Shown here piece after piece: positions 1,940-54,800 of a stretch of 64,000 nt of DNA (its first letter is position 1; each line of letters starts with the position of its first letter). The notes beneath the pieces are model-generated. The model was not told where the DNA came from, made no database searches, and saw only the letters and a program-made list of their open reading frames with translations. Source of the stretch: an uncultured bacterium (GTDB lineage Bacteria > Hydrothermota > Tepidihabitantia > Tepidihabitantales > DTDR01); assembly GCA_964505415.1 (NCBI GenBank), contig CAZDHW010000002.1, positions 45,226-109,225 on the forward strand, read 5' to 3'. The position numbers and the translations under genes are program-made.

Positions 1940-2533
1940 ATGAAAACCAAAGAAGAGATAAGACAAGAAATTTGGGAATATATGGAAAAAAATAATTTAG
2001 TAATCTTTCCCCGTCCTTGTTATGGTCGAATTCCTAATTTTATTGGAAGCGAAAAAGCAGCTGAAAAGTTATATAAAATAAAAGAATTTCTAAAAGCTAA
2101 AGGAGTCTTCTCGGCTCCCGATAGTGTGTTAAAAGCAGCGCGGAAGATAGTTTTAAAAACCGGAAAAAGTTTAATTGTTGCTTTGCCACATATTGAAGGT
2201 TATTTGGAGATAAAAGGAAAAGAGTTAGCTGATAAGGCAATTACCATTAAAAATTTTAAAAAATATGGAAAAGAACCAAAGACTTTTATTGAAATTTTTC
2301 TTCAAGGAAGTGTGGCAGTAGATTTAAAAGGTAATCGTTTAGGGAAAGGAAAAGGTTACGGTGATAAGGAGTATTACGAACTTAAAAATAAAGGACTTTT
2401 AAAAAATCCTTTAGTAATCACCATTGTTCACGATTGTCAAGTATTGGAAGATTTTTCTTACTTAGCCGAACCTCACGATATTAAAGTGGACATAATTTTA
2501 ACCCCTACGCGAATCATTAAAACGGAAAAGTAA
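1940..2533 (+). CDS. 5-formyltetrahydrofolate cyclo-ligase
   Basis: 197 aa with a YgfA/MTHFS-like N-terminus (KEEIRQEIWEYMEKNNLVIFPRPCYGRIPNF) and the typical ~190 aa size. Confidence 0.75.
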   Translation: MKTKEEIRQEIWEYMEKNNLVIFPRPCYGRIPNFIGSEKAAEKLYKIKEFLKAKGVFSAPDSVLKAARKIVLKTGKSLIVALPHIEGYLEIKGKELADKAITIKNFKKYGKEPKTFIEIFLQGSVAVDLKGNRLGKGKGYGDKEYYELKNKGLLKNPLVITIVHDCQVLEDFSYLAEPHDIKVDIILTPTRIIKTEK

Positions 2534-11501: not shown

Positions 11502-14339
11502 ATGACTGAAAACAATTATATTTTTATTAAAGGTGCTCGGGAACATAATTTGAAAAATCTTACTTTGAAAATTCCACGTAACAAAATGGTAGTAATTACA
11601 GGGATTTCTGGTTCAGGTAAGTCTTCTTTGGCTTTCGATACTATTTATGCTGAAGGTCAAAGAAGGTATATTGAATCACTTTCTTCTTACGCTCGGCAGT
11701 TTTTAGGAGTATTAGAAAAACCAGATGTTGATTATATTGAGGGGCTTTCGCCCGCAATTGCCATTGAGCAGCGGACAGCAGCTAAAAATCCTCGTTCAAC
11801 TGTTGGTACCGTAACGGAAATTTATGATTATTTACGGGTTCTTTTTGCTCGTTTAGGAAAACCTTTCTGCCCATATTGTAATAAAGAAATTGCTTCTCAA
11901 ACATTAGACCAAATAATCGACCAAATCTCTTCTTATCCGGAAAATACTAAATTAATAATATTGGCACCTGTTGTTAGGGGAAGAAAAGGTGAATATCAAA
12001 CTCTTTTGGAAAAAATAAAAAAAAGGGGTTTTTTAAGGGTAAGAGTGGATGGAAAAATTTATGAGATTTCGGAAGTTAAAAATTTAGAAAAATATAAAAA
12101 ACATAATATTGAAATTCTTATCGATCGGTTAGTTTTATTAGAAGAAAATAAAAAACGATTGGCTGATTCGATAGAATTAGCATTAAAAGAGGGGCAAGGC
12201 TTATGTGTAGTGATTTTTGATGAGAAAGAGGAAAAAATTTTTTCTGAAAAGTTTGCCTGTGTCGATTGTGGTTTTTCTTATGAAGAAATTTCTCCCCGGC
12301 TTTTCTCTTTTAATTCACCTTACGGTGCTTGTTCAGCATGTCACGGCTTAGGGACAAAAATGGAAATTGATCCTGAAAGATTAATTGTTGACCCAAAGCT
12401 TTCCATTAATGAAGGAGTAATTGAAGTTTGGGGAGAGCCCAAAGGCCGTTGGTTTACTTCGGTTTTAAAAGCTTTGGCAAAAAATTATGGTTTTTCTTTA
12501 AATACTCCGTGGGAAAAACTGCCCAAGAAGGTGAAGGAGATAATTCTGTATGGTAGCAATGAAGAAATTTTGGTGGAGCACGAAAGATGGGACGGTACTC
12601 ACTACAAATTTTATGAAGAGTTTGAAGGGGTTATTCCCCATTTAATGCGAATTTATCAAACTACCGAATCAGAAAGTACCCGGGAATGGATCGAGAGATA
12701 TATGTCAATTTTACCTTGTCCCGAATGCGGTGGAGCACGCCTTAAAAAAGAGGCACTCTCAGTTAAAATTAACGGTTATTCTATTTATGACATTTGTAGA
12801 TTATCTATTAGAGAATGTTATCAATTTTTTGATAATTTAAAATTAAATGAACAAGAAAAAAAGATTGCTCAGGAATTAATTAATGAAATTAAAAAAAGAT
12901 TAAACTTTTTGATTGAAGTAGGTGTTGATTATTTAACTTTAGAAAGAAGAACTGATACCTTAGGAGGTGGTGAAGAACAACGAGTGCGGTTAGCAACGCA
13001 AATTGGCTCAGGTTTAGTTGGCGTAACTTATATTTTAGATGAACCCAGTATTGGCTTACATATGCGAGATAACCATAAGCTAATTCAGACATTATTAAGA
13101 TTAAGAGATTTAGGAAATACAGTTATAGTGGTGGAACATGATCGGGATACAATTTTAGCTAGCGACTATGTAATTGATTTAGGTCCGGGAGCTGGAGAAA
13201 AAGGTGGATATATTGTGGCTACTGGTACACCGGAAGAAATTATGAATAATCCCAACTCCTTAACCGGTGCCTATTTAAGTGGTAAGAGAGAAATTCCTTT
13301 ACCTGAAAAGAGAAGGAAAGGAAACGGTAAGTTTTTAATAGTGAAAGGTTGTTCGGAAAATAATTTAAAAAATATTGATGTTACAATTCCTTTAGGCATG
13401 TTTGTCTGTCTTACTGGTGTTTCCGGTTCGGGAAAAAGTACTTTTATGAATGATATCCTTTACAAAGCCTTAGCCGAAAAATTTTATGGTTCAAGAGAAA
13501 AACCCGGCAAATTTAAAGAAATTATTGGTTGGGAAGAAATTGATAAAGTGGTAAATATCGATCAGTCACCTATTGGTCGAACCCCTCGGTCTAATCCGGC
13601 AACTTATACTAACGTTTTTACACCAATAAGAGAACTTTTTGCTCAAACCAAAGAAGCCAAGATGAGAGGTTATTCTCCAGGAAGATTTTCTTTTAATGTT
13701 CGCGGTGGTCGTTGTGAAAACTGTGGTGGCGATGGAATTAAAAAAATTGAAATGCATTTTTTGCCAGATGTATACGTGACTTGTGAAGTTTGTAAAGGGA
13801 AAAGATATAATCGGGAAACTTTAGAAATAAGATATAAAGGAAAAAATATTTATGATGTTTTGGAAATGACTGTAAATGAGGCTTTAGAATTTTTCTATAA
13901 TATTCCAGCAATAAGAAGAAAATTAGAGATGTTGCGGGACGTAGGATTAGGTTACATAAAATTAGGACAGCCAGCCACTACTTTGTCTGGTGGCGAAGCT
14001 CAAAGGGTTAAATTAGCAAGAGAATTATCAAAAATTGGTACCGGAAAAACTTTATATCTATTAGATGAACCAACTACGGGTCTTCATTTTGAAGATATTC
14101 GATTATTGTTAATTGTTCTTAATCGGTTGGTGGATAAAGGTAACACAGTACTTGTTATTGAGCATAATTTGGATGTGATAAAATGTGCCGATTGGATAAT
14201 TGATTTAGGACCAGAAGGAGGCGAAAATGGTGGTTATATTGTTGCTTGTGGTACGCCCGAGGAAATTGCTCGCTGTGAAAAATCCTATACTGGAAAATTT
14301 TTAAGAGAAGTATTAAGAAGACACGGAATTCAATTCTAA
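11502..14339 (+). CDS. uvrA: excinuclease ABC subunit A
   Basis: 945 aa with two ABC ATPase modules ([19 protein letters not shown]; LSGGE signature twice) and zinc-finger CxxC pairs. Confidence 0.97.
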
Positions 14340-15116
14340 ATTTTTCTCACAAATTCGTTCAATTCTTTTGGCTTTATAAGTAGCGGAATCAATTTCAACA
14401 ATTACTCCCTCTACTTTTAAATTGGTATTTGCTGGGATAAGACGATAATTGATTCCGTAAAGTAATCTTTTTAAAGAGTCTTCGATCTCCATACCTAAAA
14501 TAGAGTCATGGGCACCGCACATTCCAACATCAGTTATATAAGCAGTGCCCTTAGGCAAAATTTGTTCATCGGCCGTAGGGATATGGGTATGGGTTCCTAA
14601 GACGGCGCTTACTTTTCCATCTAAAAAATATCCCATAGCTTTTTTTTCAGCAGTGGCTTCTGCATGAAAATCAACAATAATAATTTTTTTGTTATTAATT
14701 TTGATTAATTCTTCGTCAATTCGGCGAAAAGGACAATCTAGGGGTTTCATAAAAACTCTGCCGATAAGATTTATGATAATAACTAACTGATTATTTTTTT
14801 CTAGAATACATATTCCTTTTCCTGGGGCTTCTGGAGGATAATTGAGCGGTCGAATAATACGGTTTTCTTTTTCTAAATAATTAATAATCTCTTTGCGATC
14901 AAAAGCATGGTCACCTAAAGTAATGCAATCTATCCCCAAAGATAAAAAATCTTCAACAATTTGAGGAGTAATTCCAAAACCTCCCGCAGCATTTTCGCCA
15001 TTCACAATGATAACATCGGGTTTGTATCTTTCTTTTAAAAATTTTACTCCTTTCACCAATGCTTTCCTCCCGGATTCTCCACACACATCACCCAAAAAAA
15101 GAATTTTATAATTCAT
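14313..15116 (-). CDS. ymdB: YmdB-family metallophosphoesterase (2',3'-cyclic-nucleotide phosphodiesterase-like, TIGR00282)
   Basis: [20 protein letters not shown]... with GENAAGG and GTHTH motifs. Lies directly downstream of rny, as in B. subtilis. Confidence 0.85.
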
Positions 15117-16626
15117 AAATTAAATTTATTTTGATTTCTCCTAATAGATTTAGTTCGTTTCTTATTTTTTGCTGTAAATCTTTTATTAAAAATTGACCTT
15201 CTTTTTCATCTAATTTGTTGGTTTTCAGCAACACTCGAATTTCTCTTCCTAATTGAAAAGCATAAGCTTTTTTTACTAATTGGTGCTCTTCGCAAAGTTC
15301 TTCAATTTTAATTAATTTCTTAAAAATTTCATCAAAATCAATTGCTTTACCAGCACCGTAAATATGAGAAATTGAATTAGCTAAGGAAACAACGTAACAT
15401 TCGGGATAAGGAAAATTATCAGTTTGGTGATGATGGGCAATTGCTTCAATCACAATATTATTCTCTTCAAATGTTTTCACAAAATTAGCACCGATTGTCT
15501 GGTGAGGTAAATTCTCTTGATTAGGAAGGATTTTACCAATGTCGTGTAAAATACCAGCCCGGATTACATTGAGAGGATTAATTTCTAAATTAATTGCTAA
15601 ATTTTTTCCAATAATGGCTACTTCTTTAGAGTGAAATAAGAGGTTTTGTCCGTAAGTAACAAAAAAATTCATTTCACCAATAGTTTTTATAAGTTCTTGA
15701 GCAAAATTTTCAATACCTAATTCTTTACACACTGTTAAACCGATTTGAAAACTTTTTTCTTCAAAATCTTTTAATACTTTTTGGTAAGCTTTTTCAATAA
15801 TTTCAGTAGAAATTTCTTTTTCATTTATTATTTCTTTTATCAATAATTCCGCCAGAGCCCTTCTTTTAGGATGAAAAGAAAAGATGCATATTTTTTGGGG
15901 CGTATCATCAATTATTATTTCGGCACCTGTAAGATTTTCAATTAAATGAATATTTCTCCCTTTCCGACCGATCAATTTTCCCTTTAATTCGTCATTGGGT
16001 ATTGTTAAAAAAGATACTGAATGTTCTTTAGCTACCGGTAGAGCTGTTTTTTGGCAGGCTTCCAAAATTATTTTTTGAGCAAGGATCTGAACTTCATTTT
16101 TTGCCTTTTCTTTAATTTTTTTTAATTCTTCAAAGTGTTCGTTCCAAACCTCTTTTTCTAAACTTCTTTTTAACTCTTCTTTTAGTTCTTCAATCTTTAA
16201 ATTAGGGATTTTGGTAATTCGAGTGTGATATTCATTTATTAATTTGTCTAAATAATCAATCTTTATTTTATAAATCTTTTCGGTTGTTAAAAGTTCATTT
16301 TCTTTCTTTTGAAGTTGGGATAAATAAAAATAATATTCTTTTTCTTTTTGTTTATAGGTATCAGCAAGTTTTTCTAATTCTTTGTTTTTCTCTTTGAGTT
16401 TTGCTTCATATTCTTGTAAAATTTTGATTTTCTCTTTTTCCAGCTCTTTTCTTAACTCTTCAATCAATTTTAATTTTTCTTTTTCTTTTTCTTCTTTAAT
16501 TTTTTTTTGGTATTCATTAAACTTTCTAACTTCTTCTTCATATTTTTTTTGCCAAAAATTCTTTGTGATTAAATAAGTGGTTAAAAAACATAAAACCAAT
16601 AATAAAACTCCATAAATAACACCCAT
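15106..16626 (-). CDS. rny: ribonuclease Y
   Basis: N-terminal TM helix, long coiled-coil, KH domain (LIGRKGRNIHLIENLTGAEIIIDD) and HD domain (GILHDIGK). Confidence 0.9.
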   Translation of the reverse strand: MGVIYGVLLLVLCFLTTYLITKNFWQKKYEEEVRKFNEYQKKIKEEKEKEKLKLIEELRKELEKEKIKILQEYEAKLKEKNKELEKLADTYKQKEKEYYFYLSQLQKKENELLTTEKIYKIKIDYLDKLINEYHTRITKIPNLKIEELKEELKRSLEKEVWNEHFEELKKIKEKAKNEVQILAQKIILEACQKTALPVAKEHSVSFLTIPNDELKGKLIGRKGRNIHLIENLTGAEIIIDDTPQKICIFSFHPKRRALAELLIKEIINEKEISTEIIEKAYQKVLKDFEEKSFQIGLTVCKELGIENFAQELIKTIGEMNFFVTYGQNLLFHSKEVAIIGKNLAINLEINPLNVIRAGILHDIGKILPNQENLPHQTIGANFVKTFEENNIVIEAIAHHHQTDNFPYPECYVVSLANSISHIYGAGKAIDFDEIFKKLIKIEELCEEHQLVKKAYAFQLGREIRVLLKTNKLDEKEGQFLIKDLQQKIRNELNLLGEIKINLIYEL

Positions 16627-16649
16627 AGTTTCCCCTTTTTAAAATTGAA

Positions 16650-16823
16650 GGCTCCCCGTAGTATCGTGTTGGCGATGGTCTCTGAACCCTAAAAAAACTA
16701 TGGCGTCCTAAGGTGGGTCCTATCTTTGGAGGTCACCCTCCCGATAGTAAGCACCATCGGACATCCATCATTTAGGTGTTGGCTCAAGACCATTTTTACC
16801 AATCACGAATACTACCGGGAGCC
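16650..16823 (-). ncRNA. structured rod-like ncRNA, best guess 6S RNA (SsrS)-like; SRP RNA is the alternative
   Basis: About 174-nt GC-rich island between zapA and rny with no ORF. The 5' GGCUCCCGGUAGUAUUCGUG pairs with the 3' CACGAUACUACGGGGAGCC. Nested internal stems GGUCUUGAGCC/GGUUCAGAGACC (one G-U, supports the minus strand), CUAUC/GAUAG, and an apical GGGAGG-GUGA-CCUCC GNRA hairpin. Its 5' end overlaps the last 4 codons of zapA. Confidence 0.45.
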
Positions 16824-17087
16824 TTTATTATTTACCAATTTTTCAATGAGCATGTCTAATTTTTCTTTTAAAAAATTTTCTTGTTTTTCTTGACTATCCA
16901 ACAGTTCCTCAATAAGATTAAGAGAACCAAAAAGAATTAATTCGCTAAAATCTAAATAAGGAAATTTTTCTTTAAATTCTTTTACTTTATTCTCTAAAAG
17001 ACCAAACAATTTTTTTAAATATTCTTCATCACGGTCGCTTTTTACTTCATAAGTTCGTTCCAAAAATTTGATTTGGAAGCTTTTCAT
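16812..17087 (-). CDS. zapA: cell division protein ZapA-like
   Basis: 91 aa; N-terminal beta region (FQIKFLERTYEVKSDRDEEYLKKL) followed by a coiled-coil, ZapA-like in size and pattern. Confidence 0.55.
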   Translation of the reverse strand: MKSFQIKFLERTYEVKSDRDEEYLKKLFGLLENKVKEFKEKFPYLDFSELILFGSLNLIEELLDSQEKQENFLKEKLDMLIEKLVNNKGSR

Positions 17088-17281
17088 ATTTTAAGTTTAC
17101 CGAAACTTTTCAATTTTTCAATAAGAAATTTTACTTTTTTCAAACTTTTTTCTATTTTTTCTTGATAATGAGCCAATTCTTTTTTTAAAATGTCGTTTTC
17201 TTCTTTTAAAGATTTATTTTCGTGTAAAATTTTTTCTATTGATTCTTCCAAAATTTTTAACCGCTTTTCAATTTCATTCAT
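17084..17281 (-). CDS. small coiled-coil protein (ZapB-like?), hypothetical
   Basis: 65 aa, entirely heptad-like (LKEENDILKKELAHYQEKIEK). Translationally coupled between pheT and zapA. Confidence 0.4.
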   Translation of the reverse strand: MNEIEKRLKILEESIEKILHENKSLKEENDILKKELAHYQEKIEKSLKKVKFLIEKLKSFGKLKI

Positions 17282-19521
17282 TTTTTTCTTAATTCGGCAG
17301 AGAAATTTTTTTCAACTGCTTTAATGATTTTTAATAATAATTCTTCTATTTCTTCTTTAGTGTAAGGAGAATCTTTAGGCTGAAAGGCAAGGCGGATCCC
17401 TAGATTTCTTTTTCCTTCAGGTAAAGGCTTTCCGGAAAAGGAGTCAAAAATAGTAATCTCTTTTATAAAAGGAGCAAAGCTTTTCTTAATGAAATTGACT
17501 ATATCTTGAACATAAATCTCTTCATTGATGAGAAAGGCTAAATCCCGATAAACTGGTAAAAGCAAAGGCAAAGGTTGGTAAATCTTTTCTTTGGGTAAAC
17601 AATGGTAAATTTCTTCTAAGGCTAATTGGCAATAGAAGACCTCGCCTTCAATTTTGTATAAAGAGAGAAAATCTTCCTTTACTTTTCCTAACCAACCAAG
17701 TTCTTTATTTTGGCAAATAATTGTGGTAGAAGTAAAGGGGGAAAAATAAGGAAAAGCTTTTTGATGATAATTAATTTCAGAAATATTTAAAAAGGTAAAA
17801 AGCTCTTCCACAATACCTTTTAAATCGAAATAATCTACCTTTTGGGGCTTGACATCAAAATTGATTGGTTGATTATTTCCGGTGAGAGCAATTGCCAAAA
17901 CATATTTTTCTTTTCTATAAACTTTGCCAATTTCAAAGATTCTTAGGTCTTTATTGTTAAAAGAGAAATTATAAGCAATAACATTTAAAAAGGAGTGAAT
18001 AAGATTATCTCTCAGTAACGCCAGTCTTTCGTTTAACGGATTTACCAGTCGGATTCCTTCATTTGTAGATTCCGGTAAGAAACTTAAAGTTATAATTTCG
18101 AATAAACCGCGAGAGACTAAAAAATTGCGCAACCGATTTAAAAAAATAGTGAAGGGTTTAAGTTCACCAATCGTTTTTAAACGGAGACAAAAAGGTGAAG
18201 CAAAATTTTCGTAACCATAATAACGAGCAATCTCTTCAACCAAGTCTATTGGTAGTTTTAAGTCGTAACGCCAGCTTGGTGGCTGATAAACAATTTCTCT
18301 TTCATTGACATTAATAATTTCTCCTCCCAATCTCTTAAGAATGTTTATGATATACTCTCTTTTGAAGGTGATGCCTAAAATTCTTCTGGGATAATTTAAG
18401 GGTAAGGCGATCAATTCTTTTTTAATCTCTTTACTGACAATTTTTCTTTCTTTAACAATTTTTCCTTCTCCCCATTGAGCAATAAGGTTAGCGGCATAGT
18501 TAGCAAAAAATTTTAAATTTTCGTAATCAATCCCCAATTCAAACCGCCGGGCGGCTTCGGTTCGTAACTTCAGAAAATTTATACTTTCCCTTATTGCCTC
18601 ACAAGAAAAAAAAGCGCTTTCTAAGAGAACTTCTTGGGTATTTTCAATGATTTCAGTATTTCGTCCACCAATAACTCCGGCAATTGCAATAACTCTTTTG
18701 CTATCGCTAATACAAAGTACCTTTTCGGAGAGTTCTCTTTCTACTCCATCAATAGTTTTCAATTTTTCTCCTCTTTTTCCTTGACGAATATAAATTTTAT
18801 TCCCAAAAATTCTTTTTAAATCAAAAGGGTGAGTAGGCTGGCCAAATTGAATAAGGGTGTAATTAGAACCATCAACGATATTATTTATCGGTCTTAAGCC
18901 GGAAAGAAAAAGTCGCCATTGATAGAAAAGGGGAGAAGGTTTTACTTTTAAATTGATAATTTTGGTGGCAATATAAATCGGGCACTTTGCTTGGTCTTCA
19001 ACGATAATTTCTAATTCATTTTTTTCATCAATTTCTAATTGGTTTTCTAATTTGGGTAAAATTAAATTTCTTTCCGTGAAAAAAGTAACTTCCCGAGCCA
19101 AACCAAATACGGAAAACAAATCAGCACGATTAGGAGTTATTTCTACCTCTAAATAAAGATTATCAAGACAACTAAAAACCTCTTCACCTTCAGCGAATTC
19201 ATCAAAAATTAAACAATCTTCATAAGGAAAATTCAAATCACTGCCTTTTAATACTTTTTTCTGTTCGGGATGGTAACCAATTTTTTGCCCCACAACTGCC
19301 GAAATATTTTCGGTAGTAATAAATTTTTCGTTAGCCAATTTTAAAATTGTTTTCTCTTTTTCTTTTTCAATAATTGTGGCTATTTTAAATCCCGAAAAGT
19401 CTTTTAGATAATCATAATAATTTACAATGCTAATGCCCTTTTTGGTTAACAACTCCAAAAGTTCCTTTTCGTTTATTTTTGGCTCCAAAAATTCATTTAA
19501 CCAATTTATCGTGAGTCTCAT
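17278..19521 (-). CDS. pheT: phenylalanine--tRNA ligase beta subunit
   Basis: 747 aa with PheT N-terminal MRLTINWLNEFLEP and B3/4 and B5 domains. Not adjacent to pheS (41252). Confidence 0.9.
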   Translation of the reverse strand: MRLTINWLNEFLEPKINEKELLELLTKKGISIVNYYDYLKDFSGFKIATIIEKEKEKTILKLANEKFITTENISAVVGQKIGYHPEQKKVLKGSDLNFPYEDCLIFDEFAEGEEVFSCLDNLYLEVEITPNRADLFSVFGLAREVTFFTERNLILPKLENQLEIDEKNELEIIVEDQAKCPIYIATKIINLKVKPSPLFYQWRLFLSGLRPINNIVDGSNYTLIQFGQPTHPFDLKRIFGNKIYIRQGKRGEKLKTIDGVERELSEKVLCISDSKRVIAIAGVIGGRNTEIIENTQEVLLESAFFSCEAIRESINFLKLRTEAARRFELGIDYENLKFFANYAANLIAQWGEGKIVKERKIVSKEIKKELIALPLNYPRRILGITFKREYIINILKRLGGEIINVNEREIVYQPPSWRYDLKLPIDLVEEIARYYGYENFASPFCLRLKTIGELKPFTIFLNRLRNFLVSRGLFEIITLSFLPESTNEGIRLVNPLNERLALLRDNLIHSFLNVIAYNFSFNNKDLRIFEIGKVYRKEKYVLAIALTGNNQPINFDVKPQKVDYFDLKGIVEELFTFLNISEINYHQKAFPYFSPFTSTTIICQNKELGWLGKVKEDFLSLYKIEGEVFYCQLALEEIYHCLPKEKIYQPLPLLLPVYRDLAFLINEEIYVQDIVNFIKKSFAPFIKEITIFDSFSGKPLPEGKRNLGIRLAFQPKDSPYTKEEIEELLLKIIKAVEKNFSAELRKK

Positions 19522-48996: not shown

Positions 48997-51069
48997 TTAT
49001 TTAATGAAAATTACCTTTCTTCCCGACCAAATCTTTTCTTTGGAAATAAGGAAATAGATGCCGGTTTTTAAATTTTTGTTATTAATTTTTTGGCCAAAAG
49101 AATTAAAAATTAAATAATCCTTGTTAAAAAGATTTTCTAAATCTTTTTTAAAATAAATGGTCGGCATTTTTTGAATCCACAAGGAAATAGACTTATTCTC
49201 TTCTATTGCTATCGTCCTTTCACGATAGGAATAAAATTCAAAAGTTTTGTTGCCGCAGATAAAGAAAAATGTTTGAAAATCAGGTACATACACCATTGAG
49301 CTGCCTTTTGTTTTATTGATTGGTAAAGATTCAACCAAATACCAACTATCTCCTAGGGTATATTTCCAAAGTTGGGCTGTACCTCCTTTAAGGCAATAGA
49401 CTTTACCCTCTTTATAAGCAAGGGCAGTTCCATTTTTTGGTTTCTTTTTCTTTCCGCTATTTTCCGGTTTTTCCGGAAGCGAAGAAAGGAAAGTAAAGGA
49501 ATCAGTAAAAATATTATATTTATAAAAATCGCCATATTTCCCTTTCAAAATATACAAAGTAGCTCGACCATCATAAGTTAAGCAACTTCCTTCATCCATT
49601 GGTTTACCACTGGGAGCAATGGGCAATTCTTTTCTTCTTAGCCAAGTATCGCCTTCAATATAATAAGAATAGAAACTATTAGTTTTTGAACCATAAAGAA
49701 GATAGATAAAACTGGAATCAAGTTTTTTAACATAAACTAAATCGCAACCGCTCTTCAATTTTGTTTCCTTTCCTGAAGGATATTTAAAACCGTAAGGAAC
49801 ATCTTTTTTCCTTTCCCATTTTCTTTCGGAAATATCATACCGCCAAAATTCTAAGGTATTACCACCTTTAATAAGATAAATGAAATTGTGGTTATCACTG
49901 GCTAAGGCACAACCCCTTTTTATCTTTCTCTTCTTTTCTCCACCAGGAACAGTTTCTAATCTTTGCCAATTATCGGTCAAAATATCATAAAGAAGAAAAT
50001 TATTGGTTCCGCTACCGGTGATGGCATAAAGATAGCGAGGGGGTATATAAACTAAATCGCTACCGTCTTTTACCGGTTTATCGGCAATTAAATCTTTTCT
50101 TTTTTTCCAACCGGGTTCAGGTAAACTAAGAACAACAATCGTATCATAATATAAAATTGCTGGATTATATTGATTAGTAATAAGGGAACAAATAACCGGA
50201 TGAAAACCAGCAGAAAGTCTTATGTTTTCTAACACTACGGTGTCATAAGTAGGGGAGGCGATTGCTGAAGAAAGATGACCGTTTCTTATAAAATGATTTT
50301 CACCAATCCAAATAGTTAAAAGATAATCTCTTTCAAAGATTGAATCGTTACGAGTAATTATTTTCATATTAAAAGGAACATCAGCAAAAACAGTCTCGGG
50401 TATTAAGTTTTCAATATAAAAACAATAAGGAGTAAAAGTGTCTATTAAATTTATAGTGTCTTTAATTTTTGAAGAAATTGTCCAGATATTAGGTCCAAAA
50501 TAAGAAGTATCCCAAACAGTATTAAAAATTTGAAATTTTAAAAAATCACCGCTTCTTCGCCAAACTTTCACTGTCAAAGTGTCGTAAGGTTGAACTCCCA
50601 AGGGAGTTAAATTTAAAGCATAATAATACCAGAGATTTCCCCGTTGAGAAGTTAATTGACAGGAGTCAATTAAAAATCTATTATTTCTTTTTAAATAAGC
50701 TTTCATATAAGCTACTGGTTCTAAAGGTTCATAAGGTAAAATATCGGAGATAACTAAAGTTACTCCGTTAGGATAAATATCAAAAATTTGAGTTGCTTCA
50801 CTTTTTCGCCAATTCTTAATAAAAAAACTTAAACTTTCCGAAAAATTTGACAAAATTCCTAAGGTTTCCCCTAAGGGGTCGGCAAAAAATTGGTAGCGAG
50901 CAAAACCATTGCCTAACCGAAAAATTTCGGCATAAATAGTGTCAGGAGTATTTTGAGTAAAAACTTTAATAGTTTCAATAGGTATTTCTGGAGAAAGTCT
51001 TATAAACCCGGTCATCAATTGAGCAGAAATAAAAGAGAAGAATAAAAAAGCGGATATAAAATATTTCAT
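48997..51069 (-). CDS. secreted Kelch-like beta-propeller repeat protein with T9SS C-terminal sorting domain
   Basis: Signal peptide. At least five Kelch-like repeats (LYAITGSGTNNFLLYDILTDNWQRL; IYLIKGGNTLEFWRYDISERKWER; ...). C-terminal ...KTGIYFLISKEKIWSGRKVIFIK. Confidence 0.7.
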   Translation of the reverse strand: MKYFISAFLFFSFISAQLMTGFIRLSPEIPIETIKVFTQNTPDTIYAEIFRLGNGFARYQFFADPLGETLGILSNFSESLSFFIKNWRKSEATQIFDIYPNGVTLVISDILPYEPLEPVAYMKAYLKRNNRFLIDSCQLTSQRGNLWYYYALNLTPLGVQPYDTLTVKVWRRSGDFLKFQIFNTVWDTSYFGPNIWTISSKIKDTINLIDTFTPYCFYIENLIPETVFADVPFNMKIITRNDSIFERDYLLTIWIGENHFIRNGHLSSAIASPTYDTVVLENIRLSAGFHPVICSLITNQYNPAILYYDTIVVLSLPEPGWKKRKDLIADKPVKDGSDLVYIPPRYLYAITGSGTNNFLLYDILTDNWQRLETVPGGEKKRKIKRGCALASDNHNFIYLIKGGNTLEFWRYDISERKWERKKDVPYGFKYPSGKETKLKSGCDLVYVKKLDSSFIYLLYGSKTNSFYSYYIEGDTWLRRKELPIAPSGKPMDEGSCLTYDGRATLYILKGKYGDFYKYNIFTDSFTFLSSLPEKPENSGKKKKPKNGTALAYKEGKVYCLKGGTAQLWKYTLGDSWYLVESLPINKTKGSSMVYVPDFQTFFFICGNKTFEFYSYRERTIAIEENKSISLWIQKMPTIYFKKDLENLFNKDYLIFNSFGQKINNKNLKTGIYFLISKEKIWSGRKVIFIK

Positions 51070-51114
51070 TAAAAAATAATAATATGAATTTGAGAAAAAG
51101 TCAATATTTCTAAT

Positions 51115-51836
51115 TTATTTCATTTTAACTATCTTTTTCTTATTGATCTTTCCTTCTTTTGTTTTTAAATAATAAAAATAGACTCCCTTAGGTAATTCTT
51201 TTTCTTTACTGTCAAAGTTTAATCTTTTCATTAATTTTCCAAAAGAATTATAAATCAGAATTTCTACCGGCTTGGTTTTCAATGAATATTGGGAAAAAAT
51301 CTCAGCAATTCCCAATTGCGATGGTAAACTAACAACAATAAAATCAGAAGTGGTATCATTTCCCCAGCTTGAGCCACAAATATAAAGGTTATTGTCAATA
51401 CCAGAAGCAATAGCAGTAGCCCAATCATAATAATTTCCCGGTCCATTATAACGTTAAACCCATCTTTCCCTTCCTTCATTATTTAAACTGATAATAATAA
51501 AATCAGTATCAGAGCCTCTTTCATAAGCTTTTCCACATGCATAAATATTTCCATCCTCTCCATAAATAATGGAATAACCATACCCGTTTCTATATTGATA
51601 TACCCATCTTTCTCTTCCTTCAGGGTTTAAACTAATAACTAAAAAATAAGATAAAGTGTCGTTAATAAAACTACTTCCGCAAATATAAATGTTTCCATCA
51701 AGACCGTAGACAAGAGAGTTAGCATATTCGTAATTTTTTGGTCTATTGTAGCGATAAATCCATTTTTCCGACTGAGCTGAAGAAAATGTGTAAAAAATGG
51801 TAAATAAAATAGAAAAAGATAATTCTTTTTTTCATA
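51115..51836 (-). pseudogene. disrupted gene for a small SBBP (beta-propeller) repeat protein with T9SS CTD
   Basis: Minus-strand frames give signal peptide (M)KKELSFSILFTIFYTFSSA|QSE, then SBBP repeats W(I/V)YRYNxPxNxxDxAxAIA...GNIYxCG x3, then CTD ...KGVYFYYLKTKEGKI. Broken by a +1 frameshift in an A7 run just after the ATG (~51824-51832) and an in-frame TAA where Tyr is expected (WV*RYNGPGN, ~51457). Confidence 0.6.
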
Positions 51837-51840
51837 TTAT

Positions 51841-54800
51841 TTAAGATTTGGCAATAATATCAAGTTTTATAAGGTAAATACCGGTTCCCAATTTTTTAAT
51901 ATCTACTACCAAATGATTGGTATTGTTTTTTGTTTGATAGATAACTTCTCCGAGGGCATTATAAATTGTTAGTTTAACAGAAAATTTAAGAGGTAATGGA
52001 TAATAAATTTTAAGATAACCCTTTACCAATGCGAGTATCGCAGAAAAATCTTTTAAATCTTTTGTTTTCTTATTAATATTAATAATTTCGTCGCTATTAG
52101 GCCACAAAAACTCGTGTTAGGAATATAAAGTCAGAATTCATTAGTATTATTACCCACAAAGGCATAAAGACCACCAGTCCTTTTGGAATAAGTAAGTGCG
52201 CCACCTCCTTTTACTTTTTTGTTGGCGTACCTTCGGGTTTACCAACATCTAATTCAATATTCCATTGGTCGGTTTTTGGGTTGTAAGAAAAGAACTCTAA
52301 GGTATTGCCACCTTTTAAAGCATAAATAAGACCATTATCAGGATTATAAACACCGGCGCTACCTTCTCTTGCTTTCTTTTTTATTACTCCAACTATCGTT
52401 GGTCGTTGTCATATAAAATTCATTCGTCTCGCCACCGACTCTTAAGGCATAAATCTTTAGTGTATCGCTGGGAACACACACAATCCATGAACCTTTTTCC
52501 ATTTGTCAGCTGGTAAAGTTGCCAGATTGCAAATCTCAAAAGAATCAGCAACAATATTAAATTTAATCCATTCATTATTATTAGAACCGCAAATTATATA
52601 AATATAATTAGAACCATCAAAAGCCATTGATGAACCTTTTATCTCTTTGGTGAAAGGAATTATATATTCTTTCCAAGAATCTTTTTCTGGCTTATAGCGC
52701 CAGAACTCTTTAGTGTTATTCCCTTTGATCACATAGATGAGTGAGTCACCATCACCACAAATAGAAGCCCCGTATTTCACATTTTTCTTTTTTAAGGTGA
52801 GATAGGAAAAAGGTACTTCGCTCTTCTTTGTCCAAATATTGGTAGTCACATCGTATTCCATTAAGTCTCTTGTATTATTACCAACAAGGCATAAACTTTA
52901 TCACCAAGCGATGCTAAGGCACCTCCATTTTTAATTGGTGTTGTCGCACCACTAACATTTGGCATCTTATGCCATCCAGGGGTTAAGGAAATTACGCGGA
53001 ACGAATCAACGATTGAATCGTTTGCTGGATTTATGTCACCTGATAAAGCAGTCTTTAAAATAGTTGTAAAATTACCGGTATCCGTACAGAAATAAGGTAT
53101 AAAGCTTAAAGTAACTTCGGTATCCGGAAGTACATTATTATAATTAGAATCAATATACACCAAAAGATTATTTTTATAAATCTTAAAGTAAGTCCAGAAT
53201 GATGATGGATAATCACCATAATTTTTCACTTTACCAGAAACTGGGTACGGTATATTTGAATCTATTAAAATTACACCGCTTGGCGAAACGATTTTAATTG
53301 CTCCCACATCTAAAATTCCTCCTCTATAAGAACTTACTGCCAAATCATTATTAGGATTTAAATCCCTTTCAGTGATTGTTCGGAAATAAGCATAATGACT
53401 TCCCGATGTTACTGTAATGGATTCATCAAAAACAATAATTTCTTCCCAATCTGGTGGTATATAAGAAATTGTTTTTTCTTGAAGATAATTTATTTCCGGA
53501 ATTGAACATTTAACCATAATATTAAATTCATCAAGGGTTCCGTAATTTTTTACCTTACATTTAGGTAGCAATTTTGTGTTGAGAGGATAATTACCATTTG
53601 GGTGAATAATTTGGGAAATGCCCACATCTTTCCAATACACAAAAAAATTCTTTTTTAGGGTGTCATTTCTTCTATTTTCATCGGGTGGCCAATAAACAAT
53701 TGCTACACCAATGTAAGGACCGGCTGTTTCTGGAGACCAAGAAGGATAGATTAATAAGGTATCCCTATTAGGAAGTAAAGAATCAATAAATTTTGCTTCA
53801 CTATAACGAAGAGGCCATTAGTATCGTAAATTTTAAAATAAACAGCAAAATTTTGAGCAATCGTTTTTCCATAATTTTGAATAATTATTTTTGGTTCAAG
53901 GGGTAATTTAGGGATACTATCAAGAGGAGAAATAATCTCTTTTACTCCAATATCACATAATTTAAAATCTTGTATCGTTTATAATAAATCCGATAACAAT
54001 AATTAGTATAATGTCCGAAATCTCGCCGAAAAAGATGAAGATTACCGTCTGGGGTAGCAACAATTTCTGGAAAGTATCGAGAGCCGGTATTAAAATGAAC
54101 AACCGTATCCGGCCCCTCCCAATTTCCTTCTGGAGTTCTTACAAATCTTACAATGTCATAAGAAGGACCTATCTCATTAGTTCTTACTACTACTTGGAGG
54201 TTATTGAATTTATCAACTGCACAAGATGGATTTTCCCGGCGATAACTACTTTGAAGAACTACCACCTCTGACCAACCTCTATTAGTTTTTACTCTGTGGG
54301 CAATATGGGGATAATATTCATTAGCAAGATAAGCTTCCCAAACTACATGGACATTTCCTTCGCTATCAATAGCAACTCGGGGGTTATAATTATGATAACT
54401 ATTAGGAAATACTGATAAAGTTTCTATTGGTCCCCATAAACCATTGGAATTTCTCATTCGATAGAAAATATTATATAAAGCATTACCTATCGGAAGGTAA
54501 GAACTCCATACAATATGAATCCTATTTTGACCATCAACCGCAATAGCCGGTTGTTGAGAAGTATACATCCAGTCCATTGGTGATGCGGTATCAATATCTA
54601 CTATTATTGGAGAACAAGAAGGATATATTTTTGCGTAACCAATTCGATATCGACCACCCCAGGAGGCAGAAAATGTGCAATGTGCAGTATCTCCTTTTCC
54701 TCCGGCAATTTTAGGATAATTAGGGTAATTATTTGATTTTAATGGTAATGAGCATATTTGGGTATAATTTCCGTTCGCTAATTTTGCTCTATAAAAAAGC

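Follow-up and report, generated by a model that had tools for sequence, protein, structure and literature searches.

Positions 16649-16823 of the window (the whole 64-kb stretch of DNA analysed here) almost certainly encode, on the minus strand, the 6S RNA (ssrS) of an uncultured WOR-3 (Caldifarciminota) bacterium. The gene is 175 nt long, with nucleotide 1 of the RNA at window position 16823, and was matched by the full Rfam 6S model (RF00013, model positions 1-187 of 187) at 40.8 bits, on the minus strand only, with an E-value of 4.8e-7 when the 371 nt of 16550-16920 were searched and of 8.2e-5 when the search covered the whole 64-kb window. This score is 5.6 bits under the gathering cut-off of 46.4, likely because the 3' strand of the central bubble departs from the consensus, and the identification rests on the summed evidence, not on the Rfam score by itself. 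At Rfam gathering thresholds the scan of the whole window returned two tRNAs and nothing else, and 6S was the sole sub-threshold match with E ≤ 0.05 among 4227 Rfam families. The GC content is 0.49-0.51 in 16600-16830, compared with 0.20-0.25 on both flanks and 0.317 window-wide, and the element is the sole non-coding GC island of the window apart from the tRNAs. It contains no real ORF: all that overlaps it is the final 12 nt of zapA and, on the plus strand, a mechanical ORF of 55 aa. A preliminary description of this DNA had proposed a candidate 6S RNA at 16650-16823, on the minus strand and straight after zapA, within an ORF-free island of high GC. Its coordinates were right within 1 nt, the island was borne out (GC of 0.49 against about 0.22 in the flanks), the Rfam scan that it suggested did return 6S, though under the gathering score, and the candidate is now supported by the RF00013 match, by orthologues, by covariation and by the linkage to zapA.

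The gene lies in a block that reads pheT, a zapB-like gene, zapA, 6S, rny and ymdB. Pfam searches confirmed the identity of both genes that had been named as its neighbours. Upstream, zapA (16812-17087, minus strand; 91 aa; Pfam ZapA, 51.4 bits) ends in a TAG stop codon at 16812-16814, and its last 12 nt (16812-16823) double as the start of the 6S RNA (nt 1-12), in agreement with the earlier proposal that the 5' end of the RNA overlaps the zapA stop; this overlap is present in all members of the clade of close orthologues. The ZapB position is occupied by a gene for a 65-aa coiled-coil protein (17084-17281, minus strand), for which Pfam coiled-coil matches were sub-threshold only and which is 38% identical over 50 aa to the Smithella ZapB encoded at the same position. 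Downstream, rny (15106-16626, minus strand) encodes an RNase Y with Pfam HD, KH and RNase_Y_N domains; its start codon lies 22 nt past the 3' end of the 6S RNA, and is preceded by the ribosome-binding site AGGGG at 16632-16636. The conserved block ends with ymdB (14313-15116, minus strand), assigned from Pfam (YmdB, 352 bits) and synteny. The 5-formyltetrahydrofolate cyclo-ligase gene that had been noted at 1940 as non-adjacent was also found (1940-2533, plus strand; 70.3 bits). In Proteobacteria such a gene usually follows 6S, but here 14 kb separate the two, which are on opposite strands. The 3' ends of the convergent genes uvrA (plus strand) and ymdB (minus strand) share 27 nt (14313-14339), and rny and ymdB overlap as well; together with the zapA/6S junction, these overlaps point to a very compact genome. 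Elsewhere in the window, at 51100-52860 on the minus strand, short ORFs of 66, 88 and 134 aa follow a 690-aa ORF (48997-51069). At their C-termini they have tails (GVYFYYLKTKEGK and GTGIYLIKLDIIAKS, for example) that look like the end of the 690-aa protein; they could be fragmented or duplicated genes for secreted proteins.

The RNase Y protein of the window is 100% identical to a UniRef entry from a "candidate division WOR-3 bacterium", a lineage whose NCBI name is now Caldifarciminota. Seven further RNase Y proteins are 69-90% identical to it, and the next best is at 35%. A full-length RF00013 match was found between zapA and rny in all nine orthologous loci scanned (37.2-49.0 bits); two of them, L003 and L004, reach 49.0 bits and are above the gathering score, whereas the other seven of these close orthologues are below it. 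The contig of the closest relative is 1.56 Mb long. In the loci that are long enough, the order is pheT, the 65-aa coiled-coil gene, zapA, a gap of ~190 nt, rny, ymdB and uvrA.

The position of the element, 22 nt ahead of the rny start codon and not separated from it by a terminator, and the conservation of this adjacency across phyla are also what would be expected of a structured leader or processing element acting in cis on the rny mRNA, which would control translation or stability or mark a cleavage site between zapA and rny. We regard this as very unlikely. The 6S model is matched over its full length, and the same class of RNA exists where there is no rny: L129 (4392-4568) and L111 (1205-1378) carry 6S RNAs with the same core motif, scoring 100 and 89 bits, which lack both zapA and rny as neighbours and precede rarA/mgsA instead, a neighbourhood documented for 6S in Lactobacillales (PMC8414754). 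Both copies have perfect promoters of their own (TTGACA-N17-TAAAAT or TAATAT) located 20-35 nt upstream of the 6S RNA, a distance that implies a processed 5' leader. Copies that adjoin rarA and have promoters of their own show that the 6S RNA is encoded by a gene in its own right, not by the leader of rny. Moreover, the two roles are not exclusive, as the 6S RNA of E. coli is likewise cut from a transcript that continues into its downstream gene, ygfA (PMC7641849).

That the element is a 6S RNA and not another structured RNA is supported by the scans and by its fold. Over 191 nt, the minus strand folds at -92.7 kcal/mol, compared with -48.9 +/- 4.3 kcal/mol for dinucleotide shuffles (z = -10.1; 0 of 200 as good), into the long imperfect hairpin with nested internal stems that had been anticipated. 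SRP RNA and Ms1 are rod-like RNAs of such size too, and the plus strand also folds (-81.7 kcal/mol, z = -9.35), as might be expected if the element were SRP RNA, Ms1, a variant family related to 6S or an antisense RNA from the plus strand. However, SRP RNA (the kind of competing family that the preliminary description had named), Ms1 and 6S-Flavo had no match in 16550-16920 even at E ≤ 10, nor had the 6S model on the plus strand of this region. The minus strand matches 6S alone at E ≤ 10, and the remaining matches listed for 16550-16920 are unrelated families with E ≥ 1.1. The plus-strand match within the element is limited to Atu_Ti4, at 13 bits and a chance-level E of 7.4, the plus-strand fold is 11 kcal/mol weaker, and G-U pairs of the minus strand turn into A-C mismatches on the other. 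Such identities are therefore extremely improbable.

The consensus structure of the 6S RNA, obtained with RNAalifold from the clade, has 58 pairs and forms a rod made of a closing stem, a 13-bp helix, a central bubble and an apical stem. The closing stem joins RNA nt 1-25 (window 16799-16823, minus strand, as for all of the following elements) to nt 152-175 (16649-16672), and contains in its 5' strand the UAG stop codon of zapA as nt 10-12; the pairing of the first ~20 nt with the last ~20 nt, which had been described earlier, thus holds, as part of a terminal helix of about 25 bp. Next to it, the P2 ("downstream") helix pairs nt 31-43 (AUGGUCUUGAGCC, 16781-16793) with nt 136-149 (GGUUCAGAGACCAU, 16675-16688) and includes the wobble G41-U138. 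This is the G-U pair of GGUCUUGAGCC/GGUUCAGAGACC from which minus-strand transcription had been argued; it is real and invariant in the clade, and a second invariant wobble, U61-G120, favours the same strand. The central bubble, which the preliminary description had suggested looking for, is unpaired in the consensus structure and consists of 13 nt on the 5' side (nt 44-56, AACACCUAAAUGA, 16768-16780) and 12 nt on the 3' side (nt 124-135, UAGUUUUUUUAG, 16689-16700). Across the clade the 5' side is AACACCUAAAUGA, while the 3' side is 12-15 nt long, U-rich and variable among close relatives. When the window sequence is folded alone, four A-U pairs shut part of the bubble in the minimum free energy structure, and relatives with other 3' sequences lose these pairs. 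The apical (internal) stem comprises nt 57-123 (16701-16767) and ends in a GUGA loop at 16733-16736. The GNRA hairpin previously described at this place is present, as GGAGG-GUGA-CCUCC, but is not conserved, as relatives have UUAU, UUCU or longer loops. The RNA thus has the size and rod shape of the 6S type (about 160-200 nt, with a closing stem, a large bubble and an apical stem; PMC8876501).

Sequence elements around the bubble point in the same direction. The window RNA has the UGAGCC/GGUUCA helix, and its 5' bubble strand begins with CCAAC; CCAAC(A/G) was found in five of the six 6S RNAs detected through rny in other phyla. Equivalents of the bubble-flanking elements occur in the 6S RNAs detected in this way in Acidobacteriota and Smithella, with the exact UGAGCC/GGUUCA in Smithella (L090) only; in metagenome loci selected by pattern, this motif is present by construction. 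On the other hand, ACCU, the "-10-like" element, is absent from the 3' bubble strand of the window clade, which has UAGUUUUUUUAG and variants of it instead: higher-scoring relatives and the Rfam consensus read CCC-ACCU, whereas the window clade reads CC-A-UAGUUUUUUUAG. In E. coli 6S RNA the 3' bubble strand holds such a "-10-like" recognition element (PMC8876501). This is the main departure from the consensus; we regard ACCU as a lineage-variable recognition element, not as one that defines the family. The window clade does carry, at 16711-16717 (RNA nt 107-113), a heptamer (CCCACCU) with exactly the sequence of the 3'-bubble motif conserved in other 6S RNAs, but ~12 nt deeper in the apical stem, where it is paired as GGUG/CACC. 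Taking it as the canonical 3'-bubble motif, which would give a bubble of ~25 nt and an extra internal helix, was rejected on spacing: 14 nt separate GAGCC from the GGAUGUCC helix and 13 nt separate GGACGCC from GGGUUCA, in both cases in agreement with canonical relatives.

Comparison within the clade shows that both the sequence and the pairing of the RNA are maintained. The eight distinct 6S sequences of the clade have a mean identity of 91%, and the RNA is 88-95% identical compared with 73-81% for the flanking coding DNA (86-92% in the case of the closest locus, L001), so the 6S RNA is under stronger constraint than the neighbouring genes. In these eight sequences the 58 consensus pairs are 99.8% paired, versus 39-45% in controls slid by 1-3 columns, and compensatory double changes were found at five pairs, four of them in the closing stem and one in the apical stem. 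Three helices, P2 among them, are invariant within the clade, and their pairing is backed by the wider alignment only, a backing that does not extend to the inner apical helices, which are invariant or cannot be aligned. With a covariance model built from the clade (R1), a single copy of the element was found in the window. The long imperfect inverted repeat and the good folds of both strands would also suit a palindromic repeat, a miniature mobile element or a GC-rich hairpin arisen by chance, none of them functional as RNA. This view deserves practically no credence given the single copy of the element, its presence at the same position in all orthologous loci with conservation beyond that of the flanking genes, the compensatory changes, and the invariant G-U pairs that favour one strand.

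More distant relatives of the 6S RNA were sought by scanning metagenomes with the pattern TTGAGCCAACAC-N(78-98)-GGGTTCAG, which yielded 45 contigs, 34 of them matched by R1 on the sense strand. When 17 of the pattern contigs were scanned with Rfam, the distant ones scored 48-100 bits for 6S and the two that belong to the clade of the window 40.3-40.4 bits. In a MAFFT alignment of 40 sequences, 34 consensus pairs were 95.5% paired and 18 of them showed compensatory double changes; none of 500 shuffles reached the observed values, and slid controls were 33-45% paired. This alignment is unreliable apically, and its support is limited to the closing stem, the bubble-adjacent helix and the first helix of the apical stem. 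Within P2, for instance, 23 sequences have AU and 11 have GC at one pair, and 34 have GC and 4 have UA at another, while in the first apical helix one pair is CG in 23 and UA in 16. A lack of helices supported by covariation at homologous loci, which had been named beforehand as evidence that would weigh against a 6S RNA, is thus not what was found. R1, a narrow-clade model, missed three of the six 6S RNAs that Rfam detected upstream of rny in other genomes. The element, an ordinary 6S RNA, therefore forms a divergent branch in an unbroken series of genuine members of the family. In distant relatives (L091, L097, L099, L118 and others), a U tract comes immediately after the closing stem (CCCUGC...GCAGGG), in the manner of a terminator, and in most of them an AGGAGG ribosome-binding site and the rny start are found about 10 to about 100 nt downstream. 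The 5' (U)AGGCU is conserved and unpaired in the 6S RNAs of distant relatives.

The arrangement of genes around the 6S RNA is shared across phyla. A genome scan based on RNase Y returned at least 80 diverse rny loci, with no WOR-3 genome among the matches listed. Also among these listed matches, an Rfam 6S RNA (54-92 bits) was found directly upstream of rny in at least six named genomes, namely three Thermoanaerobaculia, one member of the Vicinamibacterales, one other member of the Acidobacteriota and one Smithella, and the arrangement was absent from the loci sampled from Bacteroidota, spirochaetes, Nitrospirota and Aminicenantes. A zapA gene confirmed by Pfam lies directly upstream of the 6S gene in all six genomes, preceded by a ZapB gene in Smithella. 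Most metagenome contigs with the motif likewise have zapA upstream and rny-ymdB downstream, with an rny product 31-38% identical to that of the window. The block is thus carried by L016, L047, L064, L071 and L013 (Acidobacteriota), by L090 (Smithella) and by most of L091-L135, and pheT and a ZapB-like gene are often found upstream of its zapA, 6S, rny and ymdB. The position after zapA, typical of 6S genes, was hence encountered in the nine orthologous loci, the six named genomes and most of the metagenome loci. ZapB-ZapA-SsrS is a documented arrangement in beta- and gamma-proteobacteria (PMC7641849; for the zapA-6S linkage also PMC9788540), in which ssrS, often unannotated, is described as "always immediately following ZapA" (PMC7641849). 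In the searchable literature we found no description of a linkage between ssrS and rny, and no report of 6S RNA in WOR-3.

Compared with the ZapB-ZapA-SsrS-(FAU1)-EVE array (PMC7641849), the window has a coiled-coil ZapB-like gene, zapA and 6S in the same order and orientation, but rny-ymdB takes the place of FAU1/EVE, pheT precedes the array, and the zapA stop codon lies inside the RNA. The array of the window type was found in WOR-3, Acidobacteriota and Smithella, whereas the FAU1/EVE array is beta- and gamma-proteobacterial. The RNA itself resembles E. coli 6S (SsrS, RF00013) in its size class, its rod shape, the UGAGCC...GGUUCA helix, the match over the full model, though 5.6 bits under the gathering cut-off, and its position directly after zapA. 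Unlike in E. coli, the gene downstream is rny and not ygfA, and unlike in gamma-proteobacterial 6S RNAs the 3' bubble strand is U-rich, with neither ACCU nor a hairpin. In having a 3' bubble strand with no extended hairpin, and a predicted product RNA that would start with G, it is like 6S-1 (bsrA) of B. subtilis, from which it differs in its neighbourhood, in showing no sign of a second paralogue, and in that its refolding is known by computer model only. Ms1 of Actinobacteria is a rod-like RNA that binds RNA polymerase as well, a binding that would hold for the window RNA by analogy; Ms1 belongs to a separate family that binds the core enzyme, and its model has no match here.

If it works like E. 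coli 6S and B. subtilis 6S-1, the rod would mimic an open promoter (PMC8876501), and would bind and block the sigma-70-type housekeeping holoenzyme of RNA polymerase once nutrients are exhausted. With nucleotides available again on outgrowth, the polymerase would transcribe a short product RNA from the 5' bubble strand and the helix beside it. Placed relative to GAGCC, the start of this product is predicted at C46 (window 16778), which would give 5'-GUUGGCUCAAGACC, with the 5' strand of P2 (nt 31-43) as the predicted template for most of it, as in the E. coli and B. subtilis RNAs. The predicted product resembles GUUCGGUCAAAACU, which we take to be the product RNA of B. subtilis 6S-1. The hybrid with the product would then unwind the helix, the 6S RNA would refold, and the polymerase would be released. 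When nt 33-46 were blocked in silico, the freed 3' strand formed a GGUU-CAGA-GACC hairpin in five of five modelled sequences, and in the models of the window RNA and that of L005 a helix of the CCUAA/UUAGG type also closed the bubble. The short helix that can form in these models once the template is blocked would be comparable to the "central bubble collapse helix" of 6S-1 (PMC8876501).

Neither a sigma-70 promoter just upstream of the 6S gene nor an intrinsic terminator downstream of it was found, and a search for an intrinsic terminator of zapA gave no terminator-like site in 16400-17400; in the window, a UUUU run starts 6 nt past the stem. As the flanks leave no room for a promoter or a terminator, the RNA would come either from a promoter inside zapA or by excision from a zapA-6S-rny-ymdB transcript, and in both cases transcription that continues past the 6S gene probably provides for the expression of rny, as it does for ygfA in E. 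coli. The 3' end of zapA contains a 12-nt motif, GCTCATTGAAAA (16840-16851, minus strand), that is conserved at the nucleotide level. In its codons (xxG-CTC-ATT-GAA-AAr), synonymous positions are preserved in some 20 divergent loci, whose GC contents are 46%-64% and whose rny products are 31-38% identical, and the motif was seen in L091-L133 and in L003-L009. With its -35-like TTGAAA, the motif may be a promoter element for 6S. The distance from TTGAAA to TAGGCT is 15 nt in the clade of the window, 17 nt in many distant loci and 27 nt in L118, L094 and L117. A promoter TTGAAA-N17-TAGGCT inside zapA would fit many distant loci, but the spacing can be 15, 17 or 27 nt, and a start 7 nt past TAGGCT would cut off the CCC with which the closing stem begins to pair, although this pairing covaries. 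A processing stem formed by the conserved zapA motif and sequence downstream of 6S was also considered and failed on inspection.

The gene leaves the understanding of what 6S RNA is unchanged, and its main value is for annotation. Its unusual traits are minor ones, namely the zapA stop codon within the RNA, the atypical 3' bubble strand and the zapA-ssrS-rny-ymdB block shared by several phyla. Pipelines that apply the Rfam gathering cut-off would presumably miss the 6S gene in WOR-3/Caldifarciminota genomes, and such genes can be recovered with model R1 or with the pattern TTGAGCCAACAC-N(78-98)-GGGTTCAG. In addition, the known zapB-zapA-ssrS linkage is extended well beyond Proteobacteria, and its continuation into ssrS-rny-ymdB is recurrent, an arrangement that leads to the hypothesis of a coupled expression of 6S RNA and RNase Y; the presence of the block in several phyla hints at a tie between 6S transcription and the expression of RNase Y. 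A broader reading, which we put forward tentatively and consider rather doubtful as a whole, is that zapA-ssrS-rny-ymdB could be one transcription unit in WOR-3, Acidobacteriota, Smithella and many uncultured lineages, that the mRNA of RNase Y, the main endoribonuclease, would arise only through read-through or processing of the 6S precursor, with RNase Y as a possible cutter and GCTCATTGAAAA as a shared control element, and that in the clade of the window the unusual U-rich 3' bubble strand would recognise the polymerase. If true, such a single unit would couple cell division, the global control of RNA polymerase and RNA decay.
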